This document shows, one piece after another, positions 42,001-48,000 of a DNA stretch of 64,000 nt; position 1 is the stretch's first letter, and each line of letters opens with the position of its first letter. The DNA comes from an uncultured Gemmatimonadaceae bacterium (GTDB lineage Bacteria > Gemmatimonadota > Gemmatimonadetes > Gemmatimonadales > Gemmatimonadaceae), in NCBI GenBank assembly GCA_963781585.1, contig CAWAGQ010000007.1, positions 128,001 through 192,000 on the forward strand. The letters run 5' to 3'. Made by a program: the position numbers.

Positions 42001-45000
42001 ATCGCCCATGGGAACCGTCTGGGCGTTCAGTGATTGGACCCCGAACAGAAGCGTGCCAGCGGCAAATACGGAGCAGATGCGGAACACGTTCTCTCCTGGT
42101 CGAGGTCATCCGGACCGATGCCGCCTAACGTCGCAATTCAGCTGCGGCGCATCACATAGAATGCGGCTGGCGGGCGCAGACCGCCAGACGCTACCGACCG
42201 AAAACGCCGACAGCTGCAATTGCTGGTTATACAGCCCGTTCACGAGAACGTCGGCGTGAACCCGCGCTGCCCCGCGTCAACTCTTCTCGCACCACGCGCC
42301 GAAGCACTCTTTCCAGTGGCTCGCGCGCCTGCTCCATCACCGTGCGCAGCGTTTGATTGATGAGCGTTTGGTAATTGCCGCCCCCCGCATCGTTGACCTG
42401 CTCACGAAACCACTCGAGAATGTCGTCGTCTAGCCGGATCGTGATTCTCGTTTTTCCCGGAGCGATCGGTAGCACTGCCCCGCGGCGCGCCTTGCTGAAG
42501 TCATATTCCTTACGCATCGGCTCCCTCCATGTATTGGCGCCGCTCCCGAGGGGTCGCGCGACGCGCCGTGATGAGGCGAATTGCTTCATTCGTTGGCGTC
42601 CAAGCCACCACGACGATCTGATCGACTAGGTCGCGGCCTATGGTTACGTAGCGAACTTCGGATGGATGGGGATCAGTGCGCGTGAGGGCAGAGGAGTCAT
42701 CGAACACACCGACCGCATCCGCAAACTCCACGCCGTGCTTACGACGGTTGGCGACGGCCTTTGCAGGGTCCCATTCGAAGCCCATTGACGAGTGTATGCA
42801 CAAATGTGCACCATGTCAAGGCCATCGCGGTATCCGTTGCGCAACTGCGGGCGGCTGGGCTGTATAACGTGCCGCTTCAGCCGCGGCGAATCGATAGAAG
42901 ACCGCGCGCTGGACGTGAGCGAAAGCGAACGCCTGCGCGCACACCATAGCTTCGCCGTCTGCTGCAACGTCTGTTAGGCAGAAGCCAACTCACGTGGCCA
43001 GTCCGGAGGAAGTCGCATCACTTCTCGAAGTTGCGGACCCGGCTCGAGCACCATGTGGCCGCCCGCAGGTCGTTGATTATCGAGAAACGACAAACCATGC
43101 TCCAGGGGGTATCGTGCCCAAGGATTATGATAGAGGACCGGTCGATGGACGGCCACAGTCCAAGGGAGAAGTGAGCCCACGGTGAGGACTCCGGAGACCC
43201 TCCGATTGACTGGCCCCTTCGGTCCTGCCCAAGCACCGTTCGGGGTTCGGCTTAACCGCGGCTTGCCTTGCATGCGGCCGTCTACGGTGTCGAAGACAAC
43301 GGTTTCTTGGCCGAAGATTGCCTGTATGACGTCGATATGCTGCGCCGACTGATCTGCGGCGTTTACGGCAACGAGATAAGGCTGTCTGAGACGACCATAC
43401 CGTGATGCTTTGGCTTTAATGCCATCGCGAATTGACGTCCAGTTTGCGACCATTCTGGCGACTCCCGATCCGAGCACGCCAATGGGTCGATGATCGGAGG
43501 CGCCCCTGCGTCCCTCGCTCACGGGAAACAAGGAGATCTGCAGGCGACAACCGTCGTGCTCAAACTCTAGGCTTGGCGTCTTGAAATCGCCGCCCTGTAC
43601 AGAAGCGCGCACCGCTTCGTAATCGATGCCTTGGAGCCAGTTCTCAACCGCCTTTCGGATTCGGGCTCCCTGAATTGGAGTTCGCGGAAGCCCGAAGTGG
43701 CGCAAGTGAAAGAAGAAGTCTGGCGATTTCGCCCGGTTAAGCGCGTCGTAGACAACGTTGAGTCGTTTGCTGGCGATCCGGTCAGCGGCGGCTTCCTCCG
43801 TGACGGTGACCGCTTCCACGAGGAATGGCCGAGCACTCGGAAACGTTACTCGGAAGTCCGGCCGCCTCCTGCCTCTACCTCGGTATGGATGCACCGTAAT
43901 GCGGGCGCCCGCGAAGCGAAAGAGGTGGTGAAGGTATAGCTCAAAGAACGCCGCTTGGAACTGAAGATTATCGGCCGCTCTTAGCCTGGCGACTAGCTCA
44001 TGTTGGTGCGGCTTCGGATACTCCGCGAGCCAGTCTTCGGTCAGGCGACGAATGGAACCAAATGCGGGATGCGCCGACCGATTGAGAAACGTGAAGTGGG
44101 GCTCGGTGTAGTCGGCGTAGGCAGTGTCGGTACGCTCAATGTCATCGAAGAGGATCATGATCTGTTGCTTCTGCCTAACGCCTAGCGTTCAGCTGCGCGG
44201 GCAGTCCAATCAAAGCGGCGAAGCCGCCACCATGGCGCCCGCGTCGGCTGCAACGCGTGGTTGAACTCAATCCGCCTTCGGCGTCTAGCACTGCGATTTC
44301 GGTGCGTGCCCTTACTCCACCGTGGCTGATGAAGTTGGCGGAGTGATGTCCAATGTTCACGCTGAACCCCTTCAGCGAGGACACCATGACACCGCTCCGC
44401 CAACGCATGATCCAGGATCTCCAGCTCCGCGGCTACTCCGATCGCACCGTCGAAGCCTACGTCCGCTCCGTCGCTCAGCTGGCCCGCTTCTATCATGCCT
44501 CACCCGACACCCTCACGGAAGAGCAGCTCCGCGACTACCTCCTTCACCTCACCACCGTTCAGAAGGTCGCCCGGGGCACCCACACCATCGCCCTCTGCGG
44601 CCTCAAGTTCTTCTACCAGCACACGCTTGGGCGCGAGTGGATGGTCCTCAAGGTGGCCCGGCCCAAGGGGGAGAAGAAGCTCCCGGTCGTCCTGAGCCGC
44701 GGCGAGGTCTGGCAAATCCTGGATCATCTTCGACTTCCCGTCTACCGCGTCTGCCTGACGACCATCTACGCCTGCGGCCTCCGCCTCTTGGAGGGCGCCC
44801 GCCTCCAGGTCCCCGATGTCGATGGTGCCCGGAAGCTGCTCCACATTCACGGCAAGCGCCGCAAGGATCGCTACGTCCCGCTCCCGGACGCCACCCTCGC
44901 GCTGTTGCGAGAGCACTGGCGGACGCACCGTAATCCCCTCTGGCTCTTCCCCACGATCACCCGATCCCATGCCGGCGTCCTGAGCGACCCGGCCGTGGGC

Positions 45001-48000
45001 CCCATCTCCCGCGCCAGCCTTCAGAGCGCCTTCGTCCGTGCTGTCAGGGCCAGCGGTATCCACAAGCGCGCGCACGTCCACACGCTCCGGCACAGCTACG
45101 CCACGCACCTGCTGGAGGCCGGTGTCAATCTGCGATTGATCCAGGAGTATCTGGGCCACACCAGTCCCAGAACAACCGCCATCTACACCCACCTCACCCG
45201 GGAGCTCCACGACGCCGCGCTGAGTCCGATCAACGATCTCATGGCGCGTCGCTCTTGAGTCGTTAGGCCCGTCGGTTCAGACAGCCACTGCCCCCGAGAC
45301 GGGCCGTGGTGGAGCTCGCGGACATCCTCCGCAGGGCGGGGCCCGAGTATCTGCGGACCCACGCCGGACCGCTCCTGCCCTCCCACCGGAGGGCCATGAA
45401 CGACATCGTCCAGTGTCGCACACCGGCCCTCGGTGGCTCGCTCTACCGCTGCGACGAGTGCGCTGCCCTCGCGTACCGCTACCACTCCTGCCGCAACCGC
45501 CACTGTCCCACGTGCCAGGACGATCGGGCCCAGAGATGGTTGGAGCGAGTCCGGCAGCGGCTTCTCCACACCGGCCACTACCTCCTCACGTTCACCCTCC
45601 CACAGGGGCTGCGGTCCGTCGCCCGATCGCACCAGCGCCTGGTATACGCCGCCCTTCTACGCGAAGCAGCTGCCACTGTCCTCACGCTCTGTAAGGACCC
45701 GAACTGGGTGGGCGGCACTCCCGCCATCCTCGCCGTACTCCACACCTGGTCGCGCACCCTGGAGCACCATCCCCACGTCCACCTCCTCGTCAGCGCCGGC
45801 GGCCTCGGCGCGGACGGCACGGCCTGGATCAAGCCCGCTCATTCTCGTTTCCTCGTCCCGGGCTACATGCTCTCCCCGATCTTCCGGGCGAAGATGCGCG
45901 ACGCGTTCGCACGAGCCGGCCTCGCCGGCGAGGTCGATCCCGGCGTGTGGACCCACCGCTGGACGGTCCACGTCAAGGCCATCGGCACCGGGCAGCACGC
46001 CGCACTCTATCTCTCCCGCTACATCTACCGCGTCGCCCTCACCAACCACCGCATCGAACGCTTCAGCAATGATCGCGTCACCTTCCGCTATACCCACGCA
46101 CGCACCGGGGAGACCCGGCGCCTGACGCTGCCGGTGAACACCTTCATCGGCCGTTTCCTCCAGCACGTCCTCCCCCGAGGCTTCACCAAGGTCCGCTCCT
46201 ATGGTCTCCTGAGCCCCGGCCGCCGCACGCAGCTGGAACGGGCCCGCGATCTCCTCGAGCTTCACGCTCGCGACGGCGTCCCGAAGTCCGCGAGCAACAT
46301 CCCGGCGCAGACTCCGGTCGCGCACGACCAGCCACCAACCGCGCCGGACCCCTGCTGCCCGGTCTGTCGGCGCGGTCGCCTCGTGGTCATCGACCACTTC
46401 ACCCGATCGCGCGCGCCGCCGGACTCGTGGTCCTCGCCGTGCTCCACCCCACCGACTGCCACAGTCGCCGCATGATCCGCGCGCGTGGTCCGGCGAAGCC
46501 GCGCCCCATGATCGCCGGAGCGCACGGCCAACGCTGCGCCGGCCTCAATCGCGCGCGGCTGGTCCGGTGCGCGGCCCCCGGTCTGGGCTCGGCAGGCCGC
46601 CTGACGCTCGCTTCGCTGGGCGTCCTGGACGTCGCCTCGGGTCACGCACCCGCCTGAAACTCCAAGGCCCTGCCGCGGGGCGGACTGAGTTCAACCCCAG
46701 ATTGTGCCGCGGCTATCGCGCGGCACGAATCTTTACTTCGTTAGGCAGCGTCACGCCGGACGTCGCGCGTCGCGAACCAGCGCGACGATCTCGTCCCGAG
46801 ACCACTTGAGGTTCAATCCCTTGACGTCCAGTGGCGAGCCGGTGCGCGCTTCCGGCTGCAACACAAACACCTGGCCGTCGCGCCGGCGAATCCGGACCGC
46901 GCCGTCGCGCCGCGCTCGCTCTAAGAGCGCGGCGAGCCGTTGGCGCGCCTCCGAGTACGTGTACTCCTTCATGTGGGTAGCTCCAGATGTTGGACCCCCG
47001 CCGCGTCTGCTGCGCGACCGAGCGCTTGATCCAGCGTGAGCAACGGCGCGCGCTGAGTGAGGGCGCACGTCACGAGGTAGGCGTCGTAGGCGTAGAGGCC
47101 ATGCTCAGCCGCGATCTCGAGCGCGAGCGCCAGGTCAACCTCCAAGAAGCGGATAGGAATACGTTCATAGGCCTCGAGCACCTGTTGCACCTCGCCCCGC
47201 GCGATCCGACGCCGTTTCAGCAAGGCCGATAGCGCATTGCCGACTTCCCAGTGGACGGAGGCTGGTGCCACCAGGTCGGCGCGCTGGGTTGCGCGGACGA
47301 GGCGGGGGCGTTCCGGTTCGCTCGTGAGGACGGCGATGAGCGCCGAGGTGTCGATGACAATGAGCACTACATAACGTACAATTGTACAAGCGCCTGCGCA
47401 ACCCCGACGGCATGCACGCCACTCGCCTCATCGCTGCCTAACGCCCGCAATTCTGCTGCGGCGCGATCACAACAATGCGGCTGGCGAATGGAATGAGCCA
47501 GCCGCGCACCGCATTATGCGCCGACAGCAGCAATTGCTCGTTGTGCCGCGCGGCGTAGAAGAAGCGGAACCACCAGGGCGTCGCGCTCGCGGCGCCGGCA
47601 TGGACACCGGTCTGTCCACCCTCCGCAAAGTGCACATCGGAGAGCGCGTCAGCGAACGCTTTCGCGGACTCGAAGCGATCGGCGGGGAGTTCTCAAGTGG
47701 CGGTCGTGCTTGAGGTCCTGGGCGAGGTAGACGGTGGTCATGCCGCCCTGACCGAGTTATTCCTCGATCCTGCAGCGGCCGGCAAGAGCGGCGTTGAGCC
47801 GTTCGGTATTGTTTCTCATTTTGCTGCTCCGGTCACGTTCTCGAACACCACAACGCGATCTGGCAACACCCGGCCCAGCTCTCGATGAAACACGAAACGT
47901 TGGTCGTCAGCTGCAAGGCTGTATTCGACCACAAGGGATAGCGAGCGAAACCGCTCCGCTGAAAACAGGACGTGTGGTCTATCGAACACGAATGTCGGCC

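Follow-up and report, generated by a model that had tools for sequence, protein, structure and literature searches.

An IS91-family element with a tyrosine recombinase gene inserted at the R'' end of integron attC sites

How does a mobile element that carries both an IS91-family transposase and a tyrosine recombinase come to lie repeatedly at one end of integron attC sites? The question is raised by the window, a stretch of 64,000 nucleotides from an uncultured Gemmatimonadaceae bacterium (positions 128,001 to 192,000 of contig CAWAGQ010000007.1, here C7). A 2,480-bp element is present in this genome in three copies, a number that an earlier note on this DNA had reported; the copies are 99.96-100% identical to each other, with matches at C7:172257-174747 (100%), C7:182856-185343 (99.96%) and, on contig 13, C13:307514-310001 on the minus strand (100%). 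Its two genes encode a tyrosine recombinase (YR) of 301 aa and an IS91-family transposase of 389 aa. Comparison of flanks places copy 1 at 44260..46739 (+) of the window, where the three-copy identity stops; it starts with GTTGAAC and finishes with ...CTTTACTTC. Copy 2 occupies 54859..57338 (+), with its YR gene at 54952-55857 and tnpA at 55905-57074. The insertion place given earlier is thus retained, but the true left border lies 3 nt and the right border 8 nt further in. Insertion leaves no target duplication. Because GTT opens both the element and the right flank, the position of the joint is defined only to within 3 nt, and the first GTT may just as well belong to the target.

Each copy splits an attC site directly 5' of the R'' box, GTTAGRC on the attC bottom strand, at the opposite end from R', the crossover point of IntI. 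Sites were called with a covariance model, R1, for which six unbroken attC sites of the window, all in one genome, served as the training set; its E-values are rough. At copy 1, the R1 call (44173-44266, + strand, 38.4 bits, E 9e-8) stops at base 7 of the element. The 5' part of this attC (44173..44259, +), which comprises the R' box, L' arm, loop, L'' arm and spacer on the bottom strand of the attC of a PIN/Phd cassette, is separated by the element from its R'' box, GTTAGGC (46740..46746, +, bottom strand), the target word that abuts the right end. The interrupted cassette is a PIN / Phd-YefM toxin-antitoxin pair (46751..47367, −; Pfam PF01850 and PF02604); the stop codon of its Phd-like gene lies 4 nt beyond this R'' box. 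Copy 2 cuts off the 5' part of the first cassette's attC (54755..54858, +; fold z -6.1), for which the R1 call (54755-54865, + strand, 59.9 bits, E 2.5e-13) again stops at element base 7, from an R'' box, GTTAGAC, that flank comparison places at 57339..57345 (+). Close by is intI (57858..58859, −), whose 333-aa integron integrase scores 434.7 bits with TIGR02249 (cut-off 265) and whose cassettes run in the same direction. The junction on contig 13 is called with 38.4 bits, and 4 more same-strand attC calls lie within 26 kb of it. Rebuilt empty sites fold into attC hairpins in which two bases bulge from the 3' arm of the + strand. On the shared place and orientation at the R'' end, flank comparison and R1 calls bear out the earlier description.

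The genome contains 5,675 GTTA words and 1,636 GTTAGRC words but only about 25 attC sites, and all element copies in this genome use attC copies of GTTAGRC; their location is therefore not due to chance. The copies could in principle be duplicates of one ancient insertion, carried by homologous recombination or cassette shuffling without any targeting. Copy 1 (C7a) and the contig 13 copy do have in common an 87-nt attC body that occurs nowhere else in the genome, which confirms an earlier caveat about their shared left flank and means that these two insertions are not independent. However, the flanks of copy 2 (C7b), of the copies in genomes G001, G310 and G388a, and of 39 distinct metagenome insertions all differ from one another; this distinctness already contradicts a single ancient insertion, to which we give almost no credence.

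Insertions in other genomes and in metagenomes follow the same arrangement. In genomes, an attC call that stops at element base 7 is made at C7a, C7b, C13, G001, G310, G388a and G365a, which amounts to 7 of the 11 left flanks and 6 of the 10 distinct ones; in metagenome contigs 23 of 42 left flanks (22 of 39 distinct) have such a call. All 28 attC-called flanks among the 49 distinct ones are on the element's strand, and the element's genes are always on the attC bottom-strand side. The R1 call is missing at the other 21 of 49, some of which resemble other attC types. Of 32 right flanks, 29 start with GTTA, 2 with GTTG and 1 with GATA, and the pattern G(T/A)T(A/G)G(G/A)C covers each of the 11 that come from genomes. 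Insertion is immediately 5' of the word GTTRRRY, which on the attC bottom strand makes up the 3' arm (R''), and it produces two hybrid hairpins, of which the left one still scores as attC. Matching between the R' and R'' boxes across split sites is not significant, since 7,370 of 10,000 permutations reach the observed 74 of 91 matches. The element has been recently active, for a 100% identical copy occupies another attC in the sister genome G001.

The genome G365, which is 100% complete, holds five copies and no IntI above the family cut-off. Three of its four left flanks are not attC-like. Three of the copies have a common 26-nt deletion, and thus spread after the deletion arose; in the three full copies tnpA is broken and the YR gene intact, whereas one partial copy shows the opposite. 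The broken copies fit help in trans as well as movement by the YR only. The right flank of G365a, GATAGGC, places the joint at most one base into the shared triplet. The G365 copies also bear on whether the element was brought in as an odd cassette by the integron integrase of its host, a reading for which its position within cassette arrays beside intI and its hairpin-like joined ends might speak. We consider this very improbable, because the joint is at R'' and not at the R' used by IntI, because G365 has five copies and no IntI above the cut-off, and because the element has two enzymes of its own.

The element belongs to the IS91 (HUH, rolling-circle) family of insertion sequences, and within it to a branch in which a YR gene precedes the transposase gene. 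Its tnpA (45306..46475, +; PF14319 and PF04986) encodes an HUH Y2 transposase that scores 353 bits with NCBIfam NF033538 (cut-off 125), with intact motifs and with HUH histidines and Y235/Y239 that are invariant in 14 sequences. In having such a transposase with a zinc-binding N-terminus it resembles IS91, IS801, IS1294 and IS1294b, and its junctions have the features reported for IS91, IS801 and IS1294. According to the passages of PMC13181058 on the family, its members do not duplicate their target, bear subterminal palindromes on either side and transpose through a single-stranded circle that consists of the bottom strand; a target tetranucleotide (5'-CTTG, GTTC or GTCC) abuts oriIS, the end downstream of tnpA, and a similar one is present at the terIS cleavage site. 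The element agrees with each of these structural points, and all its junction features (target 5'-GTTA, left end 5'-GTTG, hairpins) fit the IS91 scheme without the YR. The tetranucleotide habit had earlier been offered as a partial explanation of the GTTA flank, and it does cover this feature. The element differs from IS91 proper in that its word is GTTA, extended to GTTAGRC within a folded integron recombination site, in that a catalytic tyrosine recombinase takes the place of Orf121, and in that its ends carry 14-16-nt inverted repeats that resemble attC R boxes and fit their formulas (GTTGAAC / GTTCAAC).

The left terminal repeat (GTTGAAC..., 44260..44275, +), a terIS-like end with a small palindrome next to it, pairs in the fold of the joined ends with the right subterminal repeat (...GAGTTCAAC, 46680..46695, +), its inverted copy; base 5 of the left repeat (A or G) co-varies with the right repeat among 26 elements. 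An oriIS-like subterminal hairpin (46699..46732, +), 7 nt from the right end, has one bulged G on its 3' arm that is kept in 26 of 26 elements, and a G-C / T-A compensatory pair. The joined ends form a two-stem hairpin (-26.4 kcal/mol), and a natural head-to-tail junction at locus L126 gives fold z values of -4.5 and -5.0. The earlier proposal that the joined ends are an attC-like site is upheld by the fold and the compensatory changes, but not by R1, which makes no attC call at the element's own site (11.5-19.2 bits, E 0.011-0.78).

The YR gene (44353..45258, +; Pfam PF00589 and PF13495, NCBIfam) encodes an IntI/XerA-like protein. TIGR02249 is its best NCBIfam match, as for 7 of 10 other IS91-linked YRs; the nearest solved structure is 2A3V (IntI4, 130 bits), with Xer proteins at 70-86 bits; and the nearest paralogue in the genome is the integron integrase (34.7% over 311 aa), in agreement with the earlier note. 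Its term 'IntI-related' is apt in this broad sense but not in a strict one, since the YR scores 201.5 bits, under the 265-bit cut-off, and lacks in alignment a 31-aa insertion of IntI, the part with which IntI reads bulged bases. In a tree, IS91-linked YRs form a single group (25 of 26) in a three-way split with IntI and solitary XerA-like recombinases, without a resolved branching order. The catalytic residues R-K-H-R-H-Y are retained in the element's YR, and each of the six in 92 to 94 of 94 IS91-linked YRs, so that the YR must also cut DNA at some step.

That step could be the insertion itself. According to the earlier note the element behaves as a 'mirror-image cassette'; on this reading the YR would perform strand exchange at R'' between a resident attC and the site made by the attC-like folded joined ends of a circular, probably single-stranded form. 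The partner would be the folded attC top strand, at RYYYAA|C of R'', mirroring the action of IntI on the bottom strand at R', and the transposase would merely supply the circle or be dispensable. We think such exchange unlikely, though it makes sense of much: the joined-end fold has R-box-like stems, an inner stem and a conserved bulged base, GTTRRRY is the formula of both the target and the element's own site, the catalytic residues of the YR are intact and IntI is nearest to it among solved structures, and G365 copies with frameshifted tnpA and intact YR reached at least three places. The head-to-tail copies at L126 and duplicated end hairpins at L028 and L073 resemble site-specific products, but rolling-circle read-through or help in trans also predict tandem and broken-tnpA copies; similarly, the G365a joint fits a crossover at G|TT and equally a cut before G. 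Against a joint made by the YR, the transposase, conserved with every catalytic residue, alone explains everything at the junctions, the IntI insertion is missing, and in other branches, whose YR and repeats are the same, the joint is at different words and away from the GTT of the repeat. The same junction pattern is described for IS91-family elements that have no YR at all (PMC13181058). Sharing of GTT, absence of duplication and subterminal hairpins are normal in IS91, and exchange by the YR is therefore not required; what stands of the proposal is an IS91 and YR element at R'', in one orientation, with an attC-like fold.

The transposase might instead act alone, inserting 5' of GTTA as in other IS91 relatives, at attC strands that are often single-stranded or extruded and so expose the top-strand word ...TAAC. 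The YR would then serve the element's own ends (accurate termination, circle closure, tandem resolution or excision), for which IS91 offers a precedent in Orf121, encoded upstream of tnpA beside terIS, with which both cleavage at terIS and accurate excision of the single-stranded circle improve (PMC13181058). The family-typical junctions agree with this, as do branches that differ in target words, as within the IS91 family, and distant relatives outside attC. However, transposase action alone leaves unexplained why all copies in this genome are at the few GTTA and GTTAGRC words in attC, why one orientation holds in 28 of 28 called sites, and why the repeats look like R boxes, and the 7-nt word kept even at non-attC-like G365 sites is more than a tetranucleotide. 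We regard it as rather improbable.

Our preferred reading, held tentatively at slightly less than an even chance, combines the two enzymes: the transposase cuts in the manner of IS91 while the IntI-like YR brings the circle to the R'' side of attC. As in IS91, for which this step has been shown, a single-stranded circle would be peeled off by the transposase, which would also provide IS91-type cutting beside the GTTR word. The YR, whose likeness to IntI, a reader of folded attC hairpins, is the basis for this proposed role, would bind the R-box-like repeats in the folded joined ends together with an R box of the folded attC, and its own cutting might take place at the joint itself, at circle closure or at excision.

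Distant relatives limit how far this combined action may extend. The two-gene layout is present at 39 of 79 YR relatives from species-representative genomes across many phyla, and occurs on plasmids too, such as Herpetosiphon pHAU01 and a Mesorhizobium plasmid, annotated merely as integrase and transposase. None of 15 distant loci has an abutting attC call, the empty sites of L028, L033 and L051, once rebuilt, have folds unlike that of attC, and in the Mesorhizobium plasmid branch the words at the flanks are different ones (TTGTAG, CCCTTT, TCGTAG). Since relatives with the same YR and like ends sit outside attC, the general task of the YR cannot be attC recognition; quite possibly, only the sub-branch with YRs at least 57% identical is specialised for landing in attC sites.

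The two-gene layout is shared by members of the IS91 family that ISfinder/TnPedia list with a 'phage integrase' gene upstream, ISSod25 and ISWz1 among them. For these members neither a function of the recombinase nor attC targeting is known to have been noted; a full-text literature search found no paper on such members and no description of attC targeting by IS91-family elements. Within the literature searched, attC targeting is thus a novel habit for a known transposon family. The joint within GTT, the hairpin site with R boxes and a bulged base, the two hybrid sites after insertion and the IntI/XerA-like recombinase recall a gene cassette with IntI; unlike a cassette, the 2.5-kb element is autonomous, joins at R'' and not R', has its own site without an R1 attC call, and uses a YR without the IntI insertion and below the family cut-off. 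As an idea, a further parallel is CTX phage, whose rolling-circle single-stranded circle folds and is integrated by XerCD, with completion by replication. By analogy, an HUH-made single strand could here offer a hairpin to a tyrosine recombinase, but one borne by the element and directed to attC, where CTX phage uses host recombinases and dif; CTX-phage-type integration is mentioned in PMC9345347. Other mobile elements home to cassette attC sites, namely the IS1111-attC group of the IS110 family and group IIC-attC introns (PMC9229058, PMC3001079), but with a DEDD transposase and guide RNA or a reverse transcriptase and ribozyme, neither with an HUH transposase nor a tyrosine recombinase. One study describes the IS91-like ISShvi3 in a Shewanella integron and reports three IS91-family insertions in variable regions; its authors state that they encountered no IS that interrupts attC sites (PMC9229058). 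In the element described here, insertion at R'' leaves the R' crossover point intact, so that the host integron may still mobilise the cassette that now carries the element.

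The element occurs in three copies in its 5.7-Mb, 67% G+C source genome, of which the window covers positions 128001-192000 of contig 7, and a BLAST search with the reported stretch finds these copies 99.96-100% identical, as expected from the earlier note's description of three near-identical copies. Flank comparison of the copies places copy 1 at 44260-46739 (+ strand; 2,480 bp, from GTTGAAC to CTTTACTTC) and copy 2 at 54859-57338 (+ strand), and BLAST locates the third in reverse orientation on contig 13 (C13:307514-310085, including an attC body). The span proposed earlier describes the same element, but it overshoots the borders set by the flank comparison by 3 nt on the left and 8 nt on the right. 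The element and its right flank each open with GTT, and therefore the joint is ambiguous within 3 nt. The first gene encodes a 301-aa tyrosine recombinase (YR) with PF00589 and PF13495 domains, whereas the second encodes a 389-aa IS91-family transposase (TnpA) that matches PF14319 (95 bits), PF04986 (154 bits) and NF033538 (353 bits; cut-off 125). Transposase residues H155/H157/H159 and Y235/Y239 are conserved and nearly all invariant among 14 sequences, and the element thus carries the zinc-binding N-terminal domain, HUH motif and two catalytic tyrosines that define an IS91 transposase.

Both window copies reside in an integron whose integrase gene (intI; 57858-58859, - strand; 333 aa) scores 434.7 bits against TIGR02249 (cut-off 265). 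To the left of intI lie cassette-sized genes on the - strand, including PIN/Phd and BrnA antitoxin cassettes, which are parted by imperfect palindromes that on the + strand start with GCCTAACG and end with GTTRRRY. A strict pattern-and-energy scan for attC returned a single site and was abandoned, and a plain pattern search returned none. The attC calls reported here are matches to a covariance model (R1) built from an alignment of six uninterrupted window sites with a hand-set structure, and hence trained on one genome only. Run with filters off, R1 detects 12 + strand sites (24070 to 54865), each of which scores far better on this strand than on the other. Because the cassette genes are on the - strand and the hairpin bulges are on the 3' arm of the + strand, the + strand corresponds to the attC bottom strand, which is the strand recombined by IntI. 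The layout at 24070-58859 is 'inverted', in that intI and the cassettes share a strand, and no fewer than 12 attC calls fall on a single strand. Copy 2 occupies the attC of the first cassette, approximately 0.5 kb from intI. Two paralogous 880-aa Ser/Thr protein kinases with PD40 beta-propeller repeats (47816-53094, - strand), flanked by attC calls at 47436-47546 and 53279-53386, form a 5.7-kb two-gene unit that is unusually large for the array.

In all six aligned attC sites, the R' box together with one further base spells the 8-mer GCCTAACG / CGTTAGGC, of which the genome contains 1,442 copies (window examples are at 44173-44180, 47436-47443 and 54755-54762). This 8-mer is the commonest among the 1,680 of its composition and accounts for 1,442 of the 1,661 TTAGGC words. 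Its flanks exhibit codon periodicity, and on contig 4 its orientation flips with GC skew, with an approximately 2:1 preference for the G-rich strand. This distribution resembles that of a polar signal spread over the genome, such as Chi or KOPS, or that of an uptake sequence.

The two R1 matches that adjoin the window copies (44173-44266, 38.4 bits; 54755-54865, 59.9 bits) both end at element base 7, such that the first seven bases of the element replace the R'' box in the left junction attC. The true R'' boxes, GTTAGGC and GTTAGAC, adjoin the right ends, and the rebuilt empty sites fold into complete attC hairpins with no duplicated word, which indicates that there is no target-site duplication. 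These three observations establish that the element is inserted at the 3' arm (the R'' end) of the attC bottom strand. The IntI crossover of the copy 1 site is at the other end of attC, within the R' box at 44173-44179.

The contig-13 copy has the same left junction as copy 1 and is located at the margin of a small array, with four more same-strand calls within 26 kb. The earlier note had cautioned that these two copies share a left flank, and indeed the 87-nt attC body at this junction is found nowhere else in the genome. The composite of attC body and element is common to 44173-46739 and C13:307514-310085, has different outer flanks on both sides, and extends from the IntI crossover point to the right end of the element. 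Simple cassette shuffling does not explain this shared composite. One-ended transposition was rejected as the source of the shared flank, because the stretch stops at the R' box instead of a GTTN word, and in either locus the cassette start found there is a normal one. The two copies represent one insertion event, the composite having moved later. No uninterrupted 87-nt or 104-nt attC bodies were found in the genome or in the collected loci, and a search of five related genomes for the unoccupied PIN/Phd cassette yielded only two matches of 31-39 nt. A search of sequencing runs listed four, each containing 5-7% of the sampled words, with no RNA run among them. Matching between the R' box of the left flank and the R'' box of the right flank across the split sites was not significant.

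Whole-genome searches for relatives revealed an identical element in a different attC of the sister genome, and the copy in genome G310 and one of two copies in G388 also reside in called attC sites. Five copies are present in G365, a 100%-complete genome from another family that has no IntI over the cut-off; among their left flanks, R1 calls one at 23.5 bits, scores another weakly at 13.8 bits and leaves two uncalled. A scan of metagenome contigs added 80 loci whose YR shows 57-94% identity; in 42 of these (39 distinct flanks) the left end could be located together with 60 nt or more of flank. An attC call ends exactly at element base 7 in 23 of these 42 flanks (22 of the 39 distinct ones), on the strand of the element every time, and several uncalled flanks resemble attC sites of other types. 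Overall, R1 identifies an attC at 28 of 49 distinct sites, and in every one of these 28 the element is at the R'' end and in the same orientation, which extends to other genomes what the earlier note had claimed for this one. None has the element at the R' crossover (G|TT of the top strand), where a cassette enters attI or attC. Insertion by the host IntI, an enzyme that does recombine attC and is encoded beside copy 2, is very unlikely given this position and the copies in G365. The genome under study holds 5,675 GTTA and 1,636 GTTAGRC words against approximately 25 attC calls. Because 28 of 49 distinct flanks are nevertheless called, these independent insertions at one attC position are far above what the target word alone would lead one to expect, and the element targets attC. 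Mere duplication without targeting fits the flank shared by copy 1 and the contig-13 copy, but set against these independent insertions it is scarcely credible.

Some copies are damaged. Among the G365 loci (L017-L021), three full copies share a 26-nt frameshifting deletion in tnpA, two of them with an additional 1-nt insertion, and one partial copy combines an intact tnpA with a YR gene that has one C too many in a run of Cs, although the single-base differences may be assembly errors. These transposase-defective copies have moved, which fits both help in trans and movement driven by YR. In the G310 copy (L009 / L022), histidine replaces the catalytic tyrosine of YR and the left end is without two bases of the terminal repeat; this copy is probably decaying. 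A 'solo' right end in G310 (L022 190-263), close to the start of the locus, may be a remnant or a second full copy. A short stretch on contig 11 of the genome under study (C11:125405-125690) matches YR residues 1-83 in two pieces (61% and 43% identity) and is probably the relic of a related element.

The left end of the element (terIS-like) carries a 14-16-nt repeat followed by a small palindrome, and GTTG opens every left end found. The right end (oriIS-like) consists of an inverted repeat, a 13-bp hairpin with one bulged G, and 7 nt. When joined, the ends adopt a two-stem fold with R-box-like outer arms, GTTCAAC and GTTGAAC, which follow the formula RYYYAAC / GTTRRRY, and a natural tandem junction folds with z scores of -4.5 and -5.0. 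Among 26 elements, left base 5 (A or G) co-varies with its partner, one hairpin pair is either G-C or T-A, and the bulged G is present in every case. Such co-variation is expected for pairing, and equally for two copies of one protein-binding site. The proposal that the joined ends form an attC-like site holds for the fold and its compensatory changes, but R1, a one-genome model, makes no attC call there (the end hairpin and its flank score 11.5-19.2 bits, E 0.011-0.78) and shows no strand preference. A head-to-tail junction of two element copies exists at L126:2556-2640, and two distant relatives, L028 (approximately 6250-6330) and L073, have duplicated end hairpins; these arrangements could stem from site-specific insertion of an element into its own end, or else from rolling-circle read-through.

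The YR has the integron integrase model TIGR02249 as its top NCBIfam match, but at 201.5 bits in two stretches it falls below the cut-off of 265 that the IntI of the genome exceeds. Its closest paralogue in the genome is IntI (34.7% identity), and its best solved relative is Vibrio cholerae IntI4 (130 bits, compared with 70-86 bits for Xer proteins). The IntI-specific segment of approximately 30 residues is absent, leaving a 31-column gap against the window's IntI in eight of eight IS91-linked YRs. The earlier description of YR as IntI-related is therefore apt with regard to its nearest relatives, but YR is not itself an integron integrase. Each of the catalytic residues R144, K168, H243, R246, H269 and Y278 is present in 92 to 94 of the 94 IS91-linked YRs. 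A maximum-likelihood tree of 47 sequences, from which those with stops were left out, unites 25 of 26 IS91-linked YRs in one group (support 94/86) and the three sampled IntI proteins in another (100/100). Host Xer paralogues fall outside, and the tree gives no resolution of the branching order among IS91-linked YRs, IntI and solitary XerA-like recombinases.

An IS91 transposase gene lies directly downstream of 39 of 79 YR relatives in species-representative genomes, the hosts of which range from Alphaproteobacteria to Clostridia and include one archaeon, and YR relatives are present on 439 plasmids. The ends of distant relatives follow the same plan as those of the element. At the ends of 15 distant loci there is no attC call, the rebuilt empty sites of three distant relatives do not fold like attC, and four identical copies of a relative on a Mesorhizobium plasmid have flanking words other than those of the element. 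Targeting of attC is therefore a trait of one sub-branch rather than of all YR-carrying elements. On Mesorhizobium plasmid NZ_CP080530.1, three identical relatives (L191-L193) have at least 1.7 kb of left flank in common, including a group II intron reverse transcriptase gene, and one has a different right flank; this pattern could result from one-ended transposition or from a larger duplication.

IS91, IS801 and IS1294 produce no target duplication, have a target tetranucleotide beside oriIS and the same or a like one at the terIS cleavage site, carry subterminal palindromes, and use a bottom-strand single-stranded circle as the active form, while an upstream accessory protein, Orf121, sharpens terIS cleavage (PMC13181058). 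The element likewise has a tetranucleotide at its oriIS side (GTTA in 29 of 32 right flanks, GTTG in two, in one of which a second copy follows head to tail, and GATA in one) and a like one, GTTG, at terIS. Every junction feature fits the IS91 scheme, and thus the shared GTT alone does not point to a tyrosine-recombinase crossover. The idea of a 'mirror-image cassette' exchanged at R'' accordingly retains its R'' position and its attC-like end fold, but the junctions need no YR crossover. Exchange by the recombinase alone, one form of this idea, is a less likely but still serious rival to the pathway favoured below. The converse caveat, that the IS91 tetranucleotide may explain the GTTA flank, is borne out by the junctions, but the scheme does not account for three things: why attC copies are chosen out of 1,636 equal words, why the orientation is always the same, and why all 7 nt of the word are retained even at non-attC sites in G365. 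Insertion by the transposase only, with YR serving another step, fits the junctions and not these three points, and is likewise a less likely but serious rival. An IntI-like YR would be a natural candidate to read the R box in the hairpin, and its presumed sites at the element ends share the same formula. For these two reasons we tentatively favour a cooperative pathway in which transposase and YR act together. A further, improbable reading, a 'mirror integron', would have the HUH transposase free a single-stranded circle whose joined ends fold like attC, and YR integrate this circle by single-strand exchange with a folded attC, using the strand and arm that IntI does not. If this were true, YR-carrying IS91 elements would be a living candidate for the ancestor type of integron integrases and attC hairpins, or the reverse.

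By every feature that can be tested in the sequence, the element belongs to the IS91 family, and by their defining features it is neither an integron integrase gene nor a cassette. It resembles IS1111-attC elements and group IIC-attC introns in homing to attC, but its enzymes differ from theirs. A Shewanella survey describes an IS91-like element that adjoins an attC but states that attC sites were not interrupted by any IS (PMC9229058). In full-text literature searches, no paper came up that describes IS91-type elements targeting attC. The two-gene IS91 layout with a recombinase is reportedly recorded in ISfinder, where the role of the recombinase is given as unknown.

The element would be a third, enzymatically distinct class of attC-homing element, and it offers a concrete lead on what the recombinase gene of a widespread IS91 branch does. 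The link between an IntI-like enzyme and a maker of single-stranded circles bears on the evolution of folded single-strand sites and of integrons. Because insertion spares the R' crossover, the element may travel with cassettes. One-ended transposition is a known habit of IS91 relatives, and therefore such elements may also bring neighbouring cassettes to new replicons.
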